Virus record (IMG/VR): IMGVR_UViG_3300050343_000142 | Reading direction: 5' to 3' (one strand) | From: an uncultured virus (IMG/VR IMGVR_UViG_3300050343_000142) | Taxonomy: Duplodnaviria; Heunggongvirae; Uroviricota; Caudoviricetes | Length of the DNA stretch: 64,000 nucleotides | In this document: piece by piece, positions 57,651 to 64,000 of the stretch | Numbering within the stretch: position 1 is the stretch's first letter | How the letters are laid out: each line of letters begins with the position of its first letter | Notes under the pieces: model-generated | What the model saw: the letters and a program-made list of their open reading frames with translations, nothing else | Database searches by the model: none | Told to the model about the DNA's origin: nothing | Translations under genes and position numbers: made by a program

Positions 57651-58052
57651 TTAGGGTTTAAATTTATATTTCATATCGAGGTATTCAGAAAGTAACTCTC
57701 TATAAGCTCTTTTACTTCCTTTAGTATTTCTACCATCATAAATATCGTGATGATACTTACACAAAATACATACGTTATCTAAATCATATTTCTTATCTGC
57801 ACTTCTACCACCCATACCTATGTCGAGTATATGAGCAAGCTCTAACCATCTAGTTTCATTACAGTCAGACCATTCACATTTAAATCTAGCTCTTTGCATA
57901 GCAGCACTTCTAATTTTAGTGAGACCACCTTCAGGTTTATCTGCATTTTTCTTTTTACCTACACCACCACGCATACCTTTACCTTTAGTACGCATTTTAA
58001 ATTCTTTGTGAGTTTCTTTCTCTGGGTCCCAAAATTCATAATTATCTACCAT
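57651..58052 (-). CDS. HNH endonuclease-like protein
   Basis: CEWSDC..LELAHI..NVCILCKYHH; next to the terminase. Confidence 0.8.
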   Translation of the reverse strand: MVDNYEFWDPEKETHKEFKMRTKGKGMRGGVGKKKNADKPEGGLTKIRSAAMQRARFKCEWSDCNETRWLELAHILDIGMGGRSADKKYDLDNVCILCKYHHDIYDGRNTKGSKRAYRELLSEYLDMKYKFKP

Positions 58053-58291
58053 CGGAATCTCCTTTTTCTAGCTGAGTTATATTGTCTGAAAGATTTCTCA
58101 GATAAATCTTTAGGGTCTTTTTCCCATTCTACATCAACTGGAGTTTCAAACATGACATTCCTAGAAATTTGTCTCTTAGTTGGACTCTGACATTTTGGAC
58201 ATTCTATACTTGGTTCTTCTTTAATTCCATAAGTAACTTCAAATAGAAGTTCGCATTTATCTTTTAAACATTTGTGTTCATATCTAGGCAT
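58046..58291 (-). CDS. FmdB-like zinc ribbon protein
   Basis: MPRYEHKC..C..FE..CPKC..R.IS. Confidence 0.85.
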   Translation of the reverse strand: MPRYEHKCLKDKCELLFEVTYGIKEEPSIECPKCQSPTKRQISRNVMFETPVDVEWEKDPKDLSEKSFRQYNSARKRRFRW

Positions 58292-58296
58292 AACAC

Positions 58297-58599
58297 TTAG
58301 GATAATTGAGTAGGGTCGTACATACTGTATTTAACAGTAATTTCTTCTCCATCTTTAATATCTGTTAAAAAATATAAATATCTAAATCTTTGAACTTCTA
58401 CAATCTTTGCATTAGGTTCTTCACTATGATTAATAAAACCACCTAAAGGCGTTCTGTATAATTTTGTAGTTATAGAGTCTTCTATATGAGTGATACCACC
58501 GTTTACACCTTTTTCTATATCACCTAATGCAAATAGTCCTAATCCATCAATGTTAGATTTATCTATTGTAAGAAATTCAGGTAAAGGTCTATATGTCAT
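58297..58599 (-). CDS. SET-domain protein
   Basis: GLGLFA, GFINHSEEPN, DI..GEEITVKY. Confidence 0.88.
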   Translation of the reverse strand: MTYRPLPEFLTIDKSNIDGLGLFALGDIEKGVNGGITHIEDSITTKLYRTPLGGFINHSEEPNAKIVEVQRFRYLYFLTDIKDGEEITVKYSMYDPTQLS

Positions 58600-59572
58600 T
58601 ATGAAACCAATCTAAAGGAACGTGATAGTTGTGTAAAGATTTTTCTTTAAAATCTACATTCATCCACTTCTCGTATCTTTTTATAGTTTCTTGTAACTTA
58701 GGGTCTTCGTAGTATCTGACAAAGTTTTGCATTTCTTTTTGCTCTAGCATATCTTTTTCTTCAGGACTAACAAAGTGATGCCAATAAGCCCTTCCTCCAC
58801 CTTCAGAGCTTATCTCTGTGTTGTACATGTGACCAACAATTGGTTGTGTATTTGGATAAACAAGTTCCCAACCATCATTAAGCAATTTAAATGTTTTACA
58901 CATATCTTCTTCCATCATCAGCATTTCTGGGTCTTCATCATAAAGAAAGTTTTGACCACTGAAAGAAAAGTTATAACTAAACTTACCAGTAGGAATTAAG
59001 TTTCTATCATCTTTTATAGTATCTTTAACCATCCAAGGTAAGCAATACTGCCATATTGGTTGTGAAAGGAAAGGATATAGTTCTAAGTCCCATTCTTCTT
59101 CCCATCCAATATATGGATATAAATTCTTGTTATCTATAAAAACTCTTTGTTCATCTTTGTAAGCATACTTAGAAGGGTATGCAGTAATGATTGATTTCTT
59201 ATTACCAGTCAACTTAGTAGCGTCTTCGTAAAGCCAAGCTAACTTTTCATCCCAACCCTCAGAAAACTTAGTATGGCTATCAATAGAAAGAACGAAGTCT
59301 TCTCCATCATATAATTCAGAGACACCCTTCCTAGCCTTACCAGTACCAATCTTATCTAATCTATTATCTTCGTTTATATAATCAAAGTATCCTTTAATGT
59401 TTCCACCAAAGGTAGAGATAAGAGTTGAAAGCTTTTTTTCTTCTTCTGGTGATGATGATAAAAATCTTATTCCAAAATGTATGTCGTGTGATTTTGCATT
59501 TTCAAATGCATCAAAGACTGTTGGTAGTAATTCCGTATCGTGCATTGTTGGCATTGCTATAAATATTGACAT
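58589..59572 (-). CDS. GT60/Gnt1-like glycosyltransferase (paralog of 8501-9355)
   Basis: SIFIAM...D.EL..TV, GTGKAR, FVLSIDSHTKF..WD, IITAYP, EE. Confidence 0.8.
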   Translation of the reverse strand: MSIFIAMPTMHDTELLPTVFDAFENAKSHDIHFGIRFLSSSPEEEKKLSTLISTFGGNIKGYFDYINEDNRLDKIGTGKARKGVSELYDGEDFVLSIDSHTKFSEGWDEKLAWLYEDATKLTGNKKSIITAYPSKYAYKDEQRVFIDNKNLYPYIGWEEEWDLELYPFLSQPIWQYCLPWMVKDTIKDDRNLIPTGKFSYNFSFSGQNFLYDEDPEMLMMEEDMCKTFKLLNDGWELVYPNTQPIVGHMYNTEISSEGGGRAYWHHFVSPEEKDMLEQKEMQNFVRYYEDPKLQETIKRYEKWMNVDFKEKSLHNYHVPLDWFHNDI

Positions 59573-59605
59573 AGAGTTATCCTAACAGATTGTTTGTTTT
59601 AGATA

Positions 59606-59656
59606 CAGCTCTCCTAAGAGAGCCGATGATGGGAGGAGGTCGGTGTGGATGCCGAC
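59606..59656 (-). ncRNA. candidate small RNA/cis element displaying CCUCCUCCC
   Basis: GC-rich island: CCGA-CCTCCTCCCATCA-TCGG followed by GCTCTC-TTAG-GAGAGC. Confidence 0.45.
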
Positions 59657-59665
59657 AATTTAACT

Positions 59666-59884
59666 TTAGCTCTTAAACTTAAAACCCATGGTATTTGATA
59701 GTGCAGGATAGCTTGATAATACTATCACTGAAATTCTACTAATTAAATCTCTACCCTCTAAATCTGAAGGAACTCTAAATGTATCTACTACTTGTTTATC
59801 TATAATCATGTCAACACGTATTTTTCCATTGTTTTCTGTGTCTGGATTTGTTTTAAATCTGATTCCGCCGAGAATATAGTTCAT
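59666..59884 (-). CDS. hypothetical protein
   Basis: ORF track; AAGG upstream. Confidence 0.6.
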   Translation of the reverse strand: MNYILGGIRFKTNPDTENNGKIRVDMIIDKQVVDTFRVPSDLEGRDLISRISVIVLSSYPALSNTMGFKFKS

Positions 59885-59946
59885 AGTTTCTTTACCTTAT
59901 CACACTGTTTTCATTTAACATGTTTTTAACATTTCTTACCACATTT

Positions 59947-59964
59947 TTAGAACAAATGTTCTAA
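59947..59964. promoter_or_regulatory. putative LexA (SOS) box
   Basis: TTAGAAC-AAAT-GTTCTAA, with the GAAC-N4-GTTC core, in a divergent intergenic gap. Confidence 0.55.
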
Positions 59965-59975
59965 TATTGAGAGCT

Positions 59976-60119
59976 ATGGATTACATAATTGGATTTTTAA
60001 TAGGATATACATTTAAAGAAATTGTTCTATTCCTTAATAGATTAAGTAAGTGGGATTACGATAATCGTTATCAATCTGAATATGACTTTCGTCCATTAAC
60101 AGAAGACGACTTACCTTAA
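59976..60119 (+). CDS. 47-aa putative single-TM micro-protein
   Basis: MDYIIGFLIGYTFKEIVLFLNRLSKW...; manual translation. Confidence 0.5.
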   Translation: MDYIIGFLIGYTFKEIVLFLNRLSKWDYDNRYQSEYDFRPLTEDDLP

Positions 60120-60440
60120 TAAATCTCCTAAAGAAACATCATCATCATTATCAACGATTGGTTTCATCTTACGTTCTTTACGAATAGCTCTACGTTCTCT
60201 TTCTGATTTTCCTCCCCAAATCCCAAAACGCTCTCCTCGTTCCAAAGCTTGTTCTAAGCAAGGCTCTATTACTGGACATTTATTACATATCTCTTTTGCC
60301 TTTTTAGTAGAACTGCCTCGTTCTGGAAACCATTCATCAGCATCAAGTTCGGGGTGAACAACTGTGTTACAAGCAGCGTCTGAATACCACTCTGGAATTC
60401 CTAAGACATCTGCTAATAGGCTTACCTTATCCATATACAC
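60111..60440 (-). CDS. whiB: WhiB-family Fe-S transcription regulator
   Basis: W...AAC, WFPERG, AK.IC..CPV...CL..AL, GIWGG.SERERR. Confidence 0.95.
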   Translation of the reverse strand: MYMDKVSLLADVLGIPEWYSDAACNTVVHPELDADEWFPERGSSTKKAKEICNKCPVIEPCLEQALERGERFGIWGGKSERERRAIRKERKMKPIVDNDDDVSLGDLLR

Positions 60441-60604
60441 ATAACCTTAAACAAATCTATTAAGTCTTAAAAGGTTTATTAAGAAAACTAAATGCGGATT
60501 GATATGATGTCTAATTTAGGGAAGGGGGAACAGGGGACACAAGGGACACAAGATGTGTGTATGTATGATATGACACGAAAACAAGAAAAATTTATACGGT
60601 ATGC

Positions 60605-61069
60605 TTAGTCCCCATAGGAAATCTGAAACTTTATAGGCTCTCCGCCCTCTGCTCCGATTTCAAGACTGGACCTTTTGCCCCACTTCTTTGGGAAACTTCG
60701 CTCTAGCCACCAAGCACTCGCTTGCCATACTCCATTATCACTAGCCCTACGTATATTACGTATGTGAGCACCCTCAGCTTCGGCTCTTGCTTTTTTTACT
60801 GCCTCCGAAAACTCTGAATACAGGTCAATCACTTCACCCTCGACAGCTGCATCAGCTGGGACTATCTCGACATCATCCTCAGTGTTTGGTGGGTTTAACA
60901 ACTTATTGTCTTCCTTTTCAATGAACTTTTCGCCTCTCTTCATCCATTCATAGTAGGTTGAGGGCGAAATACCAACCATAGTGGCAGCGTCTTCCTGATA
61001 ATAGCCGAGTTTAAGCCAGTTAGTAATGTCTTCTATCAATTGTGGGGTTAACTTAGTAGGTCTAGCCAT
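60605..61069 (-). CDS. terminase small subunit-like HTH protein
   Basis: MARPTKLT, AA.MVGIS.STYYEW, WQASAWWLER; start reassigned to MARP. Confidence 0.75.
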   Translation of the reverse strand: MARPTKLTPQLIEDITNWLKLGYYQEDAATMVGISPSTYYEWMKRGEKFIEKEDNKLLNPPNTEDDVEIVPADAAVEGEVIDLYSEFSEAVKKARAEAEGAHIRNIRRASDNGVWQASAWWLERSFPKKWGKRSSLEIGAEGGEPIKFQISYGD

Positions 61070-61261
61070 CTTGAAAACCATTATATCAGGTTTAAACACA
61101 GGATAGAGCCTTATATACCGATAAGTGTATAGATGGTCAAACTCGAAAACAAGAGATTTTTGTACGGGGTGCTAAGCGTTATAGTTGAGTTACACTAGCG
61201 ATAACTTGACCACCCCCCCTTATTTGATGGGGATGGTGAGATATACGAGAAAGGAGTACAC

Positions 61262-61306
61262 ATGAGCAAAGTAACAGTTACTTTGATATTTGTACCTATT
61301 ACTTAG
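61262..61306 (+). CDS. possible 14-aa leader peptide
   Basis: AAAGGAG-N5-ATG; MSKVTVTLIFVPIT. Confidence 0.3.
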   Translation: MSKVTVTLIFVPIT

Positions 61307-61312
61307 TAATAC

Positions 61313-61355
61313 ACCCGTGACGGTCTTTAATCAAGTTCGACTCTTGATACGGGTA
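61313..61355 (+). ncRNA. tRNA-like minihelix (acceptor stem plus T-arm, no anticodon arm)
   Basis: ACCCGTG/TACGGGT 7-bp stem; TCAAG-TTCGACT-CTTGA T-arm. Confidence 0.65.
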
Positions 61356-61725
61356 CGAGTCCTACACCGAGATACATGGTGACATGTATTGAGGTGAGAG
61401 GATTGTGTCATCCCAGACTTTATGAATCTGGAGAGGGAAAACGTCACATCCCAAACATGCAGTAATGCATTACTAAGTGAAGCGTCTAATTACAGACTGA
61501 CGCCCTGTCGTGGTGAGTGTGTTGAGCCACGGGTTAATAATCAACCACAGGCAGTGAGTACGACTCCTTTGTACTGCGACTGCTTAGGGCAGTTTTACCT
61601 AGCCAGTAGTGACAGTACTGGCGAAAACTCCACAGATAATCACTAGGTAGTCTGGGACGAGTGCTGTTAAGTCAGCTCAGTCTTTGGGACCTCCTACCCA
61701 GTAGCTAGTGACCTGTCGATGAACA
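61356..61725 (+). ncRNA. candidate large structured ncRNA
   Basis: GC-elevated region with many helices, GNRA loops and long-range pairings (61411-19/61649-57). Confidence 0.65.
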
Positions 61726-61815
61726 ATAGCTTGTTGTATAGCTTGTGCTACTTCTTGGTGGAGTAGCCGAAGGTATACACACGGTATGCCGTTTACTAAA
61801 AAAAGGAGGATATCA

Positions 61816-62064
61816 ATGGATATCTATTTACTAGCAGCAATCGTTGCAACACTTACTTATATGTTTATAGGTAGGGAGTTGCTTAACAATATATTTCCTA
61901 ACTGGAGATATTGGATTGGACTTGAGACTGTCGAAGAGTCTCTTGGCTTTGGTGAAAGAGAAGTTGGTTACATACCTATGGAAGACATAGGAGATTCTAC
62001 TTTAAAGAATCAATGTGACCATCATCCTGCCTTAGTACTATCTGATTGCTACGGCTGTTTCTAA
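61816..62064 (+). CDS. small membrane protein with C-terminal Cys/His cluster
   Basis: AGGAGG RBS, start at MDIYLL; ends CDHH..CYGCF. Confidence 0.7.
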   Translation: MDIYLLAAIVATLTYMFIGRELLNNIFPNWRYWIGLETVEESLGFGEREVGYIPMEDIGDSTLKNQCDHHPALVLSDCYGCF

Positions 62065-62148
62065 TACAGCACAACTGCTCATCAAGTTTGACTTGGTGGG
62101 CAGCATGGTGTGTTAGTCCAACATACCACTAAAAGAAAGGAGATGCAT

Positions 62149-62340
62149 ATGCAATGTATCAAAACGGTTCCGTCTTCTAAGACGAAGGAGGAACAGTGTA
62201 CATATCCACCTTATGTCCAGAGTCAAACGGATAAGAGGGAGGTCTTGTGTAGGTTCCATTTGATGGATAAAGTCGTAAGACATGCACATGAAAAGAAGCA
62301 AACAGTTGAACAGACTGTAGCTGATTTAAACATAAGCTAA
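62149..62340 (+). CDS. small C-C-C-H zinc-binding-like protein
   Basis: AAAGGAG RBS; MQC...QC...LCRFH. Confidence 0.65.
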   Translation: MQCIKTVPSSKTKEEQCTYPPYVQSQTDKREVLCRFHLMDKVVRHAHEKKQTVEQTVADLNIS

Positions 62341-62361
62341 AACTGAAAGAGAGGAAGCTAT

Positions 62362-62424
62362 ATGGATGCTAAAGATATAGTGCGTAATCCAAACGCATTA
62401 GAAGCTATGTACGATATTAGCTAA
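62362..62424 (+). CDS. 20-aa micro-protein
   Basis: GAGGA RBS; MDAKDIVRNPNALEAMYDIS; its stop is the TAA of the repeat. Confidence 0.45.
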   Translation: MDAKDIVRNPNALEAMYDIS

Positions 62425-62495
62425 TAGCTCGGAGCCTATTGAAAGGTAGGCTCTAAGGTATTAACACAAGGTTAATCCAATACTAAAGGAGAGAC

Positions 62496-62810
62496 ATGAA
62501 TCTAATCATGAGACTAATACATGCAGTACCACTGTATGTTTTCATGGTCATTGAAAACTATCGTTTCTATGGCGTGAATTATGTTACCAGTTTGACACAC
62601 TGGTGGCGTGTAGAGGTATATACAATTACGGACTACAAGAAGTATGTGTTGTGTGAGCACATCAAGGAGTTCAGTAGTTGGTATGGACCTAAGCGTAGAT
62701 ACAACCATACTAAACATTCTTTAAAGAAGTTAGAGAGTGTTCTGGATGAAGTTGAACAAGAAAATAGAAGGCAACAATTTCTTGAACTAGATACAAATTA
62801 TCCACGCTAA
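62496..62810 (+). CDS. hypothetical early protein
   Basis: AAAGGAG RBS; its stop is the TAA of the repeat. Confidence 0.7.
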   Translation: MNLIMRLIHAVPLYVFMVIENYRFYGVNYVTSLTHWWRVEVYTITDYKKYVLCEHIKEFSSWYGPKRRYNHTKHSLKKLESVLDEVEQENRRQQFLELDTNYPR

Positions 62811-62880
62811 TAGCTCGGAGTTCATTTATGAGGTGAACTCTAGGGTATTAACAATGATACCACTAAAAAAAGGAGACTAT

Positions 62881-63081
62881 ATGAAGAAGAGTCTATTCAA
62901 GAAAATCACTTATCTAATTGAGTGTTTTTATAGTTTAGCAAAAGGTAGATACACTGCTGACATTGAAGCATTGAATATTGCTATGGATGTTTATGGAAAG
63001 TATCTATTTGTGAACCTAGGTGAATTCGAGGGAGCACCTAAGTTAATGTTGTTCACAGCAAACTGTTGTCCCGACTGTTAA
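62881..63081 (+). CDS. hypothetical early protein ending CCPDC
   Basis: AGGAG RBS, start at MKKSLF. Confidence 0.7.
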   Translation: MKKSLFKKITYLIECFYSLAKGRYTADIEALNIAMDVYGKYLFVNLGEFEGAPKLMLFTANCCPDC

Positions 63082-63154
63082 TAACTCGGAGCTCATTGTA
63101 ATGATGGGCTCTAGGGTATTGACACAAGGTTAGTACTAAAAGAAGGAGGGCTAA

Positions 63155-63334
63155 ATGCCTAGAATAAAAGATACTGCCAAAGTTATATTGTCAGACGAGA
63201 CAAGGGACGAGATGGTATATACGTGGAATGCATTCAACTTGGATGTTACCAAAGAAAGAAAACGAGAGCTTATGGGTCTTGTTTGGATACCAGCTTATGT
63301 CAATTGTTTCTTTAAGGAAATGATAGATAGCTAA
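63155..63334 (+). CDS. 59-aa hypothetical early protein
   Basis: AGGAGG RBS; MPRIKDTAK...EMIDS; stop inside the repeat. Confidence 0.7.
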   Translation: MPRIKDTAKVILSDETRDEMVYTWNAFNLDVTKERKRELMGLVWIPAYVNCFFKEMIDS

Positions 63335-63406
63335 TAGCTCGGAGCTCATTCACGTGGGCTCTAGGGTGTTAGTAATTCGACTAACCCACTAAAAGAAGGA
63401 GACTAT

Positions 63407-63565
63407 ATGAAGAAGATATTTGTAATCGAGCAAATTGTCAAAGAACAATATAAGGTCGAAGCAAATAATGAGGAAGAAGCTACCTCTAAACTTCAAGATA
63501 TGACTGCTGAACCATTCTTACAGGAAGGTATCAGTTTGAGAATTCTTGAGACTAGAACTAAGTAA
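63407..63565 (+). CDS. 52-aa hypothetical protein (VEAxxEEEA motif)
   Basis: AGGAG RBS; MKKIFVIEQ..YKVEANNEEEA. Confidence 0.7.
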   Translation: MKKIFVIEQIVKEQYKVEANNEEEATSKLQDMTAEPFLQEGISLRILETRTK

Positions 63566-63580
63566 AAGAAAGGAGGCTTT

Positions 63581-63706
63581 ATGTTATGTAGTCATTGTGG
63601 TAAATCCATGAAGAATACAAAAGTAAAGTTTAGAAAGTTCATGAGGCAAGGTGTAGTAGGTATGGCTCCTACTTGCAATGATTGTTATATGTCATGGGCA
63701 ATATAG
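63581..63706 (+). CDS. 41-aa Cys4 zinc-finger micro-protein
   Basis: AGGAGG RBS; MLCSHC...TCNDC. Confidence 0.7.
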   Translation: MLCSHCGKSMKNTKVKFRKFMRQGVVGMAPTCNDCYMSWAI

Positions 63707-63775
63707 CTTAAACAGCTCGGACCTACTAGATATAGTGGGTCTAGGGTGTTTAACACCAACATTATAAATATTGAG

Positions 63776-63804
63776 TTGACGTAGCAGTATTAATAATGTA
63801 CAGT
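63776..63804 (+). promoter_or_regulatory. candidate sigma70/SigA-type promoter
   Basis: TTGACG-N17-TACAGT. Confidence 0.4.
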
Positions 63805-63862
63805 AAAAACTACAGATTGAGCGTCAACCTCAATCCGTATAACCAATAAAAAAGGAGATAAA

Positions 63863-64000
63863 TTGAAAGTAGAAAATCTATCGTTTAACGAGATGATTGT
63901 TCAATTTGTAGCTATGTTGGAGGAACTACCAAGTCAAATGCATGAGCAATCATGTAACTGGCTTACTGGTGGAGATGCCGACTTTGAGTACGATGACATG
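63863..64000 (+). CDS. hypothetical protein, truncated by the window edge
   Basis: AAAGGAG RBS, TTG start, open to the end. Confidence 0.6.
   Translation, partial: MKVENLSFNEMIVQFVAMLEELPSQMHEQSCNWLTGGDADFEYDDM

Follow-up and report, generated by a model that had tools for sequence, protein, structure and literature searches.

The window analysed here is a 64,000-nt stretch of DNA from an uncultured marine phage, and its + strand encodes, at 61313-61770, a structured non-coding RNA of ∼415-460 nt. The element starts at 61313 if a tRNA-like part is counted with it and at 61356 if not, while its 3' limit is at ∼61767-61790. It occupies the early-gene strand inside a 690-bp gap between the small-terminase gene (terS) and the early genes that diverge from it, upstream of a small early gene whose ribosome-binding site (61803-09, +) and ATG (61816, +, from the list of open reading frames) both lie outside the RNA. 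A preliminary description of this DNA had placed a large, undescribed phage ncRNA, comparable in kind to GOLLD and ROOL, at 61356-61725; its proposal is supported and an RNA is indeed found there, although the element is longer than those limits. On the 5' side a 70-nt stretch with a 14-codon remnant ORF (61239-61308 and 61262-61306, respectively, +) is dispensable since it is deleted in a close relative, and there are relatives with a 37-aa ORF at this position. The window also contains a WhiB-like gene, which is only a hint that the host belongs to the Actinobacteria.

The GC content over 61300-61800 is 0.43-0.51, compared with 0.26-0.42 in most neighbouring stretches, so that the GC-elevated region of the preliminary description is reproduced. 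Its + strand folds better than dinucleotide shuffles (z = -3.82, with 0 of 100 shuffles as good). Of a 74-aa ORF (61422-61646) a relative with 95% identity retains 55 aa and the other clades nothing, on which grounds a protein-coding reading of these nucleotides was rejected, in agreement with the early impression that no credible ORF is present. Within it the 13 substitutions between the window and the relative fall at first (8), second (1) and third (4) codon positions, and conservation follows base pairs rather than the codons of this ORF.

Searches with cmscan against Rfam 15 at the gathering score returned 0 matches over the whole window, the models not matched including GOLLD, ROOL, HEARO, OLE, raiA, IMES, tmRNA, RNase P RNA, 6S, T-box and group I/II introns. 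At E values up to 10 three hits were obtained over 61050-61850, all at chance level, and at E up to 5 nothing relevant emerged in nine relatives from other clades, so that the Rfam comparison suggested in the preliminary description brought up no known family. The top lax hit was to the osmY RNA motif (RF03036) at 61744-61818, with 19.8 bits against a cut-off of 46.9, and in the relative L072 the same motif scored 24 bits, also below 46.9; these hits (E = 0.056 and 0.079) are far below gathering, and the only resemblance to the osmY motif lies in a pair of hairpins with a ribosome site after them. None of the three findings that the preliminary description had set as its own refutation (an Rfam hit, folding no better than shuffles, codon-level conservation of the 74-aa ORF) was obtained. 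The element is one member of a family of large structured non-coding RNAs that had not been catalogued before, and this family seems to represent a new class among large viral RNAs.

Relatives were obtained from 5 viral loci and 27 of 30 metagenome loci, and these fall into five clades with mutual identities of only 50-60%. Each family member consists of a minihelix at or just before the 5' end, a variable 5' domain, and a conserved core and 3' domain. Sizes range over ∼415-750 nt, the window copy (∼415 nt past the minihelix) being the shortest form seen, and the distance from the start of the minihelix to the start codon region of the next gene is ∼505 nt in the window and at most ∼785 nt in relatives. 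The family belongs to uncultured marine tailed phages. The nearest virus record (G001) is without the region, no close DNA relatives were found among GenBank phages, and the core was not found with a sequence profile and a covariance model in 41 more distant terS loci, searched up to 2.5 kb from terS, where the flanks were perhaps too short. Context genes of one relative comprise small ORFs, a glutamine-amidotransferase-like gene and a weak amidoligase-like match, and provide no functional clue.

The tRNA-like part (61313-61355, +), located by a script scan and by covariation, is a minihelix with a 7-bp acceptor stem (61313-19 with 61348-54), an 11-nt linker containing an invariant GG (61320-30), a 5-bp T arm (61331-35/61343-47) that carries a 7-nt UUCGACU loop, and a discriminator A (61355). 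CCA is not encoded, and both the D arm and the anticodon arm are absent. In an alignment of 12 distinct versions (A4) all 144 of 144 cells are paired and 5 of the 12 pairs change on both sides, as high a level being reached in 0 of 500 shuffles; covariation is present in the acceptor stem and the T stem alike, one version having a completely different acceptor stem and further versions other T stems. The window contains one element of this type, compared with a mean of 0.1 in shuffled sequence. The preliminary description had drawn attention to large phage RNAs that occur near tRNAs, and the link to tRNA is closer than was guessed because here the minihelix is fused to the 5' end of the RNA.

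What the minihelix shares with tRNA is a 7-bp acceptor stem, a 5-bp T arm and a 7-nt UUCRANY loop, but only 10-11 nt separate the acceptor 5' strand from the T stem, which leaves no cloverleaf, and ARAGORN reports 0 tRNA or tmRNA genes in the window and in 64 loci. Several features also set it apart from tmRNA: closure of the domain is local, at the 5' end, there is no conserved ORF, and pair 3-70 is C-G, so that the G3-U70 alanine mark is absent from the acceptor stem. A permuted tmRNA was considered and rejected since the 5' acceptor strand stands before the T arm, as was the 3' half of a tRNA of the attP type, given that a 5' strand exists here and that an anticodon arm would have no space.

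Minihelices of this kind recur between small early genes of the relatives. In L072 three of them occupy gaps in a run of small ORFs that follow one another on the same strand, the third directly preceding the RNA core, and in L055 one is found between two small ORFs; in clade C the tRNA-like 5' module is duplicated. In one relative the 70 nt that directly precede the minihelix are missing but the RNA is still there, so any promoter must lie further upstream, and the minihelix would thus be internal to the transcript. Exact-pattern scans for the minihelix and for the 3' block described below, each over one genome from each of 185,579 prokaryote species and such that diverged copies would be missed, gave 0 hits.

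The variable 5' domain opens with S1, a long irregular hairpin on the + strand (61358-61404) seen both in the fold and as inverted repeat I2. S1, like P7 of the core, is not alignable in one register across relatives and both were judged by inspection; by eye, relatives have a long hairpin of other sequence beginning 2-4 nt past the discriminator. The hairpin claimed earlier for these positions is present and, by eye, plausible. S2 (61413-17 with 61427-31; 61413-61431, +) derives from MFE and centroid folds, and 9 of 10 relatives have an equivalent hairpin in one or other of these folds, with stems that differ in sequence; RNAalifold applied to a MAFFT alignment gives no S2 because the rows are out of register. 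S3 (61457-61470, +), read from the sequence, is the ATGCA-GTAA-TGCAT hairpin of the preliminary description, present with its GUAA loop and plausible as judged by eye, as is a similar GUAA-capped hairpin in clade B.

The conserved core on the + strand begins with P1 (61482-86 with 61499-61503; 61482-61503), helix 1 of the covariance alignment, which is 97.8% paired and whose outer pair is GC (11), AU (2) or UA (1). A hammerhead core was considered for the CUGANGA-like stretch of the P1 loop and rejected, as by eye the stretch is not kept across clades. P2 (61509-13 with 61527-31, helix 2) has a 13-nt loop, is 97.9% paired and has 2 of 5 pairs that change on both sides. From the sequences, the real pseudoknot is predicted to be formed by this P2 loop and a 3' strand, 61517-19 and 61521-24 pairing with 61542-48 in the window's clade (helix 3; 7 bp, one bulge), with 4 of 7 pairs changing on both sides, 81% of cells paired in the clade B register, and both a register shift in clades A/E and a U-A to C-G exchange read from alignment A8. 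P4 (61551-55 with 61579-83, within 61550-61584) encloses P5 (61557-61 with 61571-75), and these two, helices 5 and 6, are 100% paired with both-side changes in 5 of 6 and 5 of 5 pairs, respectively. The P5 loop (61562-70) presents the motif CUCCUU (61564-69), the same in 19 of the 19 distinct rows of alignment A8. P6 (61584-88 with 61598-61602, helix 7) is 90.5% paired, and all 5 of its pairs change on both sides. P7 (61603-08 with 61616-21) completes the core; by eye, a hairpin with a different sequence takes its position in clades A, E, B and D and none does in C, and the GCCAGTA/TACTGGC helix put forward for the window is likewise present and plausible by inspection, with a hairpin of other sequence at the same place in relatives.

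A covariance model built from only 8 clade B/B' sequences finds clades A, C, D and E over their full length, with E = 4e-11 to 4e-8. Over 19 distinct rows the 36 pairs of the covariance alignment are 93.1% paired and 22 pairs (122 cells) change on both sides, in an alignment that is fitted to the model's structure and hence biased in its favour, and whose rows represent only about five clades, so that independent events are fewer than the cell counts imply. The covariation score is 0.456 as against 0.154 in shuffles, 0 of 500 of which score as high, and controls in which pairing partners were slid are 33-43% paired with 1-5 pairs changing on both sides. In a hand segmentation based on coordinates 390 of 400 cells pair, and covariation is seen at 20 of 31 pairs. 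Taken as comparative evidence, these counts argue for a conserved, structured RNA fold on the + strand.

The individual helices of the preliminary description fared unevenly, about half of them being other than the conserved ones. GCGTC/GACGC is P1, CGTGG/CCACG is P2, and GCAGT/ACTGC is P4, formed with the second ACTGC copy at 61579-83; all three are supported by covariation. The long-range closing helix (61411-19/61649-57) does exist in the window (12 nt, 92% complementary) but is not part of the conserved fold, because both of its arms sit in covarying local helices, S2 and P9. The pseudoknot had been sought in a different place: its strand pair ATCTGGAG/CTCCACAGAT overlaps S2, and a 2-nt deletion in a relative shortens the pairing, while the TACCTAG/CTAGGTA helix that it was to cross overlaps P6 and loses one pair in that relative. 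CCTGT/ACAGG is confined to clade A, ACTGCT/GGCAGT clashes with P4 and P6, and GGTT/AACC is overlapped by the real pseudoknot in the window's clade.

The 3' domain (61652-61701, +) was folded with RNAalifold from 12 sequences and is arranged as a three-way junction to which an invariant terminal hairpin is added. P9 (61652-56 with 61697-701) has 2 pairs that change on both sides; in a 3-bp helix (61659-61 with 61691-93) the middle pair is AU (5), UA (5) or CG (2); P10 (61663-66 with 61673-76) has one pair that is GC (9) or AU (3), and P11 (61680-82 with 61688-90) is without variation. Beyond it lies a nearly invariant 3' block (61727-61790, +), near-identical across clades that are otherwise 50-60% identical, which contains the hairpins HP-a (61743-70, with two invariant U-G pairs) and HP-b (61772-78 with 61784-90, with one-sided variation GU/GC/AU). 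The block occurs once in the window, and the reading that it is a repeated phage promoter was rejected for that reason. The 3' end of the RNA is probably at HP-a, a hairpin with no U tract behind it.

It could be argued that the conservation is that of a DNA element beside terS, such as a packaging site, a genome end or an origin, and that RNA structure is incidental. The position in the gap between the divergent terS and early genes would suit such an element, and the - strand, too, beats shuffles (z = -3.12). Nonetheless, G-U pairs are frequent (GU in 11 rows at one P4 pair, for example), and pairing is maintained by way of G-U intermediates, for which the opposite strand would have A-C; the covariance model matches the RNA strand only, and the T-loop motif is correct only on +. 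In clade B, where ORFs of 145 and 85 aa on the RNA strand lie between the terS-proximal region and the minihelix, a distance of more than 1 kb with two ORFs separates the copy from terS, and RNA contigs cover the region. We consider this explanation scarcely credible.

Contigs from RNA libraries match the element at 100% identity in three runs, from three separate ocean studies: 61501-61766 in X17, 61460-61633 together with 61608-61763 in X18, and 61544-61748 in X20. Within the 1.3 kb compared they are confined to 61460-61766, the 3' ∼300 nt of the element, and reach no flanking gene. Their 3' ends (61748, 61763 and 61766) are at the invariant hairpin, ahead of the ribosome site of the next gene, and on the 5' side, where their limits are at 61460-61544, they do not reach the 5' domain. 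The gaps in cover give a weak hint of a discrete RNA, the kind of cover that had been proposed as a check, from assembled contigs that cannot show ends, strand or level. In a fourth run, X15, a single 3.4-kb contig passes through the whole region and could be a read-through transcript or DNA. A consensus scan recognised no sigma-70 promoters or intrinsic terminators, other promoter types being outside the scan, and the transcription unit is for this reason deduced from gene order alone.

These 3' ends, and the motif in the P5 loop, bear on the view that the first downstream early gene has in this element a very long cis-acting 5' leader, the fold of which, perhaps as a sensor of a ligand, protein or tRNA, sets the pairing of CUCCUU with the Shine-Dalgarno sequence or a stop at the invariant hairpin, the abundant short RNA being the terminated 'off' product. 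CUCCUU is the exact complement of the AAGGAG found in the downstream ribosome-binding sites, and, because the loop and every one of these sites are invariant, their pairing is beyond the reach of covariation. In every clade ∼15-35 nt separate the end of the 3' block from the ribosome-binding site, the RNA contigs halt just before that site in the way of terminated riboswitch leaders, and the weak osmY hits reflect an architectural likeness to a 5'-UTR motif. The downstream gene, however, differs between clades while the 3' block stays, so that the RNA is not tied to one gene; a length of 415-750 nt with swappable peripheral domains is far above that of known leaders; there is no terminator-like U tract; and a leader accounts neither for the tRNA-like 5' module nor for the fact that clade C has it in duplicate. 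A leader is thus unlikely in our estimation, though by no means far-fetched.

The closest known systems include GOLLD (RF01998) and ROOL (RF03087), large, ornate, pseudoknotted RNAs of phages and prophages that occur next to tRNAs or joined to them; the present RNA is phage-encoded, several hundred nt long, and has covarying helices, one pseudoknot and a tRNA-like element fused to it. It differs in that no match to either model is obtained in the window and 9 relatives at E up to 5-10, in its smaller size (∼415-750 nt), and in having an armless minihelix, not a complete tRNA, as its partner. The resemblance is one of kind, not of family membership. According to a recent study, GOLLD is phage-encoded with a 3' region that is conserved and a 5' region that is less so, and tRNAs are adjacent to it or inside a linker, a marine example lying downstream of a tRNA (10.1101/2024.12.08.627333). 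The variable 5' domain, the conserved core and 3' domain and the fused tRNA-like element of our RNA are arranged as in that portrayal of GOLLD (10.1101/2024.12.08.627333), and they could be taken to indicate an RNA-only particle of the ROOL/GOLLD type, a multimeric cage or lattice formed during infection with the tRNA-like element as cargo or docking handle. Against this, neither sequence nor structure matches the GOLLD or ROOL models in any clade and the window member is about half the size of GOLLD; we regard such a particle as distinctly improbable.

A survey of IMG/VR by Fremin et al. (2023) lists 8495 short structured RNA candidates, some of them tRNA-like (PMC10690425). Its entries are 29-151 nt long, and hence the whole RNA is not one of them; the minihelix or the 3' hairpins could be.

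The minihelix itself resembles the tRNA-like domain of tmRNA and synthetic minihelices, with a 7-bp acceptor stem on a 5-bp T stem, a UUCRANY loop, and a GG strand at the place of the D loop. In tmRNA, however, it is the molecule's two ends that close this domain, the body being inserted between them, and there is a tag reading frame, whereas here a local 43-nt hairpin stands at the 5' end, the body comes after it and there is no conserved tag frame. In mitochondrial tRNA punctuation and in MALAT1-mascRNA, tRNA or tRNA-like folds stand between functional RNAs, which tRNA-processing enzymes thereby separate. By analogy, the placement of the minihelices between cistrons is punctuation-like and fits such a role, although those systems, unlike the phage element, are eukaryotic or organellar. 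We know of no dsDNA phage with armless tRNA-like punctuation, and literature searches for it found none.

Our preferred explanation, to which we assign a probability of roughly 55%, is a new RNA family with minihelix punctuation, from which a processed, trans-acting RNA is made. The RNA would be synthesised as part of an early polycistronic transcript in which the minihelix serves as a punctuation mark recognised by the host's tRNA-processing enzymes. RNase P would cut on the 5' side of the minihelix and RNase Z, or another nuclease, after the discriminator, the properties of the host RNase P and RNase Z being assumed in this model. These cuts would free a large RNA with a defined 5' end, whose 3' end would be defined and protected by the invariant 3' hairpin, and the freed RNA may then act in trans as a stable, compact folded particle. 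Its target might be translation, reached through the exposed CUCCUU and Shine-Dalgarno AAGGAG sequences; this guess is the weakest step. Minihelix substrates are cleaved by RNase P, and are substrates of AlaRS and EF-Tu as well (PMC11221534).

The same minihelices and the same loop could instead act as an anti-defence decoy, the former mimicking tRNA acceptor ends and absorbing host toxins that attack acceptor or CCA ends, the latter mimicking the 16S rRNA 3' end and absorbing nucleases that cut there. Some mycobacterial MazF toxins do cut at UCCUU in the 16S anti-Shine-Dalgarno region, which counts in favour of a decoy, as do the several minihelices per early region, expressed early to judge by their position, and a CUCCUU loop that is exposed and invariant. 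Defence toxins that inspect the tRNA acceptor stem exist (PMC11559606). Set against these points are the absence of an encoded CCA and a search near the element that found no defence or counter-defence genes, and we hold a decoy to be very unlikely. A bolder form of the punctuation model is that the phage lineage punctuates its early transcript with armless minihelices, at which the host's RNase P and RNase Z, and perhaps its CCA-adding enzyme, would cut the transcript into units, one of them being the new ornate RNA, which would act on host translation or defence through CUCCUU as a mimic of the 16S 3' end, through freed acceptor mimics or as an RNA-only particle; put this broadly the idea is a speculative one that we think rather improbable.

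Large, elaborately folded RNAs of bacteria and phages are rare. The handful of known classes are OLE, GOLLD, ROOL, HEARO and raiA; new RNA biology has come from every one of them, and RNA-only assemblies were recently demonstrated for three. With no Rfam match, strong covariation, a pseudoknotted core and contigs from three ocean studies, the element described here looks like a further class of large RNA. Since the window copy is the shortest natural version it is a practical one for structure probing, cryo-EM and RNase P assays. To our knowledge, none of the other large RNA classes has an armless tRNA mimic fused to it, of the sort that is met here again between early genes, and if these minihelices are processing signals they would constitute tRNA-type punctuation in a DNA phage.

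The structured RNA (window positions 61313-61770, plus strand) sits in a 690-bp gap separating the minus-strand and plus-strand gene blocks of a tailed-phage genome. Every sizeable gene (large terminase, portal, protease, major head protein and a tape measure of 2183 aa) is carried on the minus strand, from the small terminase (terS; 60605-61099, phrog_4102, E = 8e-38) down to low coordinates, and small ORFs follow on the plus strand from 61816 on. Identity of the large terminase to its counterparts in cultured phages does not exceed 27%, so that the lineage is an uncultured one, and all of the relatives derive from marine or estuarine metagenomes or viromes. Between the two terminase genes, on the minus strand, lie an HNH endonuclease (57651-58052) and a WhiB-like regulator (60111-60440), the latter hinting at an actinobacterial host despite the low GC content of the phage (∼0.26-0.43 across most of the profiled 58000-64000). 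The interval 61100-61238, adjoining terS, remains conserved (nhmmer E = 1e-17 to 1e-23) even in relatives whose RNA lies at a distance of 1-2 kb; it could hold divergent promoters or a packaging site, and a consensus scan of it found no sigma-70 consensus.

The preliminary description had proposed a GC-elevated, well-folded stretch with no credible ORF and no known family, and these basic properties are borne out. GC content is 0.43-0.51 across 61300-61800, and for 61340-61800 the folding energy of the plus strand is -157.8 kcal/mol versus -135.7 ± 5.8 for shuffled sequences (z = -3.82, with 0 of 100 shuffles equal); the minus strand gives z = -3.12 in the same test. An Rfam search of the whole window returned no match at the gathering score, and just three chance-level matches around the region at E up to 10. 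In a 95%-identical relative the 74-aa ORF is only 55 aa long; it is without counterpart in the other clades, and the 13 substitutions between window and relative that fall within it are distributed 8, 1 and 4 over codon positions 1, 2 and 3, so that conservation does not track codons.

A 19-nt word from the first hairpin led to two viral contigs, one near-identical to the window and the other ∼95% identical with 70 nt (61239-61308) deleted. This indel retains 14 codons of what was a small ORF, together with a good ribosome site, and in relatives its position is occupied by a 37-aa cysteine-rich ORF. Loci around terS relatives supplied a longer, diverged version of the element in three more contigs, and alignment with these revealed a conserved block immediately upstream of the start initially proposed. 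With this block as a pattern 30 metagenome loci were obtained; by profile and covariance model the core is present in 27 of them and in 0 of 41 more distant terS loci. The sequences form five clades, A (which includes the window), B/B', C, D and E, with 50-60% mutual identity among A to D in a pairwise table and with E, added later, nearest to A.

The first 43 nt of the element (61313-61355, plus strand) form a tRNA-like minihelix. Its 7-bp stem encloses first an 11-nt linker, in which a GG is invariant, and then a 5-bp stem capped by a 7-nt UUCGACU loop; an unpaired A comes directly after the 7-bp stem. By its predicted fold this is a tRNA acceptor stem, T arm and discriminator lacking both D arm and anticodon arm; ARAGORN makes no call here. 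Over 12 distinct versions all 144 of 144 cells are paired and 5 of the 12 pairs change on both sides, values that 0 of 500 shuffles reach, and slid partners pair in 19-42% of cells. One version has a wholly different acceptor stem, and a relaxed scan adds others that differ in their T stems and share the linker pattern. The window contains one element of this type versus 0.1 expected, and across the family the distance from minihelix start to the start codon region of the next gene is ∼505 to 785 nt. Contig L072 has three minihelices in gaps between consecutive small same-strand ORFs, the third ∼80 nt upstream of the RNA core; in contig L055 one is flanked on each side by a small ORF and is not followed by a large RNA; and in clade C two minihelices, with a truncated 110-nt piece of the 5' domain between them, precede the RNA. 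Two further tRNA-like stretches, neither called by ARAGORN, were noted in relatives. The first (L023:4036-4114, plus strand, 79 nt) has a standard T arm and an acceptor stem like that of tmRNA/tRNA-Ala, including the G3-U70 pair. The second, a 73-nt stretch between two ORFs (L055:2083-2160, plus strand), has, besides a T arm and an acceptor-like stem (6/7 pairs), the motif that follows the 5' strand in the minihelix, of which it could be a degenerate full-length relative.

Because MAFFT alignments place several helices out of register between clades, the core fold was tested in two ways. In the first, each core was segmented by coordinates and pairs were counted; with this hand-made segmentation, biased towards the structure, six helices of 31 pairs have 390/400 canonical cells and 20 pairs changing on both sides, versus 31-45% paired and 3-5 such pairs for slid partners. 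For the second, out-of-sample test a covariance model was trained on clade B/B' alone (8 sequences); its matches in clades A, C, D and E span the full model (E = 4e-11 to 4e-8) and all fall on one strand. The resulting alignment of 19 distinct rows has 36 pairs in 7 helices, 93.1% paired (33-43% for slid partners), with 22 pairs (122 cells) changing on both sides and a covariation score of 0.456 versus 0.154 ± 0.015 for shuffles, 0 of 500 scoring as high. Helices P4 and P5 are 100% paired with 5/6 and 5/5 covarying pairs, respectively, and the P5 loop reads CUCCUU in every row; the small hairpin P3 is convincing in clade B only. Covariation is seen within P2 and also between its loop and the downstream strand with which that loop pairs, establishing a true pseudoknot; in the window, as read on the model alignment, it joins 61517-19 and 61521-24 to 61542-48 (plus strand). 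Its inner half is offset by one position in clades A and E, within which a U-A to C-G exchange occurs.

Among the helices first proposed, P1, P2 and P4 are backed by covariation, three more (the first hairpin, the hairpin with a GUAA loop, and P7) are plausible on inspection by eye, and six lie outside the conserved fold. The long-range closing helix reflects a real 12-nt complementarity but does not belong to the conserved fold, both of its arms residing in covarying local helices, one of them S2, a hairpin that recurs at the equivalent place in 9/10 relatives. The pseudoknot originally suggested overlaps S2 as well, and a 2-nt deletion in a close relative shortens the pairing. Some of these long-range helices arise from internal repeats and duplicated strand motifs. 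A 27-nt direct repeat (61598-61624 and 61693-61719, 70% identity) lies inside the RNA, and short motifs of certain helix strands occur twice per clade and could permit alternative pairings.

For the 3' domain, RNAalifold, run on 12 sequences, pairs 61652-56 with 61697-701 (plus strand) in a closing helix that has two covarying pairs. It also gives a 3-bp helix with A-U, U-A or C-G in the middle position, a hairpin where A-U replaces G-C in some sequences, and two nearly invariant plus-strand hairpins (61743-70 and 61772-90). The block containing the latter two is the best conserved stretch of the element, with one copy in the window; an exact-pattern scan of prokaryotes (one genome per species, 185,579 species) found neither this block nor the minihelix. 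Frequent G-U pairs, the one-strand model matches and the T-loop motif together establish plus as the RNA strand.

Part of a 1.3-kb stretch occurs in six RNA-library runs, four of which, from four studies, were aligned to the window. In three runs every contig falls within the element at 100% identity (61501-61766; 61460-61633 and 61608-61763; 61544-61748), two of these runs amounting to just 9 and 48 million letters. The fourth yields a 3.4-kb contig, from the 95% relative, that spans the entire region and may represent read-through RNA or DNA. In the three studies the contigs stop within 20 nt of each other, inside the invariant hairpin and ahead of the ribosome site (61803-09). Coming from contigs, which do not resolve true ends or strand, this is a consistent though weak hint of a discrete RNA whose end is near 61767.

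A relative that lacks the 70 nt immediately upstream of the minihelix retains the RNA, and in clade B ORFs of 145 and 85 aa on the RNA strand lie between terS and the minihelix; the minihelix is accordingly placed inside a longer early transcript. In the simplest reading the minihelices would serve as punctuation marks cut by host tRNA-processing enzymes, cutting would release the large RNA, and the invariant hairpin would set its 3' end. The exposed CUCCUU is the exact complement of AAGGAG; both partners are invariant, beyond the reach of covariation, and the match in sequence suggests a role in translation or as a mimic of the 16S 3' end. Downstream genes of one relative gave no functional clue. 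The early region of clade B relative G003 (L107:10308-13177, plus strand) encodes a glutamine-amidotransferase-like protein (GATase_4, E = 9e-10) and, separated from it by a 192-aa ORF, a weak amidoligase-like match (E = 4e-4, just under the Pfam cut-off).

The likeness in kind to GOLLD/ROOL suggested in the preliminary description extends to layout: the 5' part is variable, the 3' part conserved and a tRNA-like element attached, in parallel with the published account of GOLLD (10.1101/2024.12.08.627333). This RNA gives no match to the GOLLD or ROOL models. No published description of it was found in the literature on phage tRNA-like or minihelix elements, GOLLD/ROOL relatives or surveys of phage structured RNAs. 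An IMG/VR survey of short candidate RNAs (PMC10690425) has entries of 29-151 nt only, among which sub-elements of the RNA may already be present. We rate the RNA, for which there is no Rfam family, as a new class within the large ornate phage RNAs, its distinctive trait being a fused tRNA mimic.
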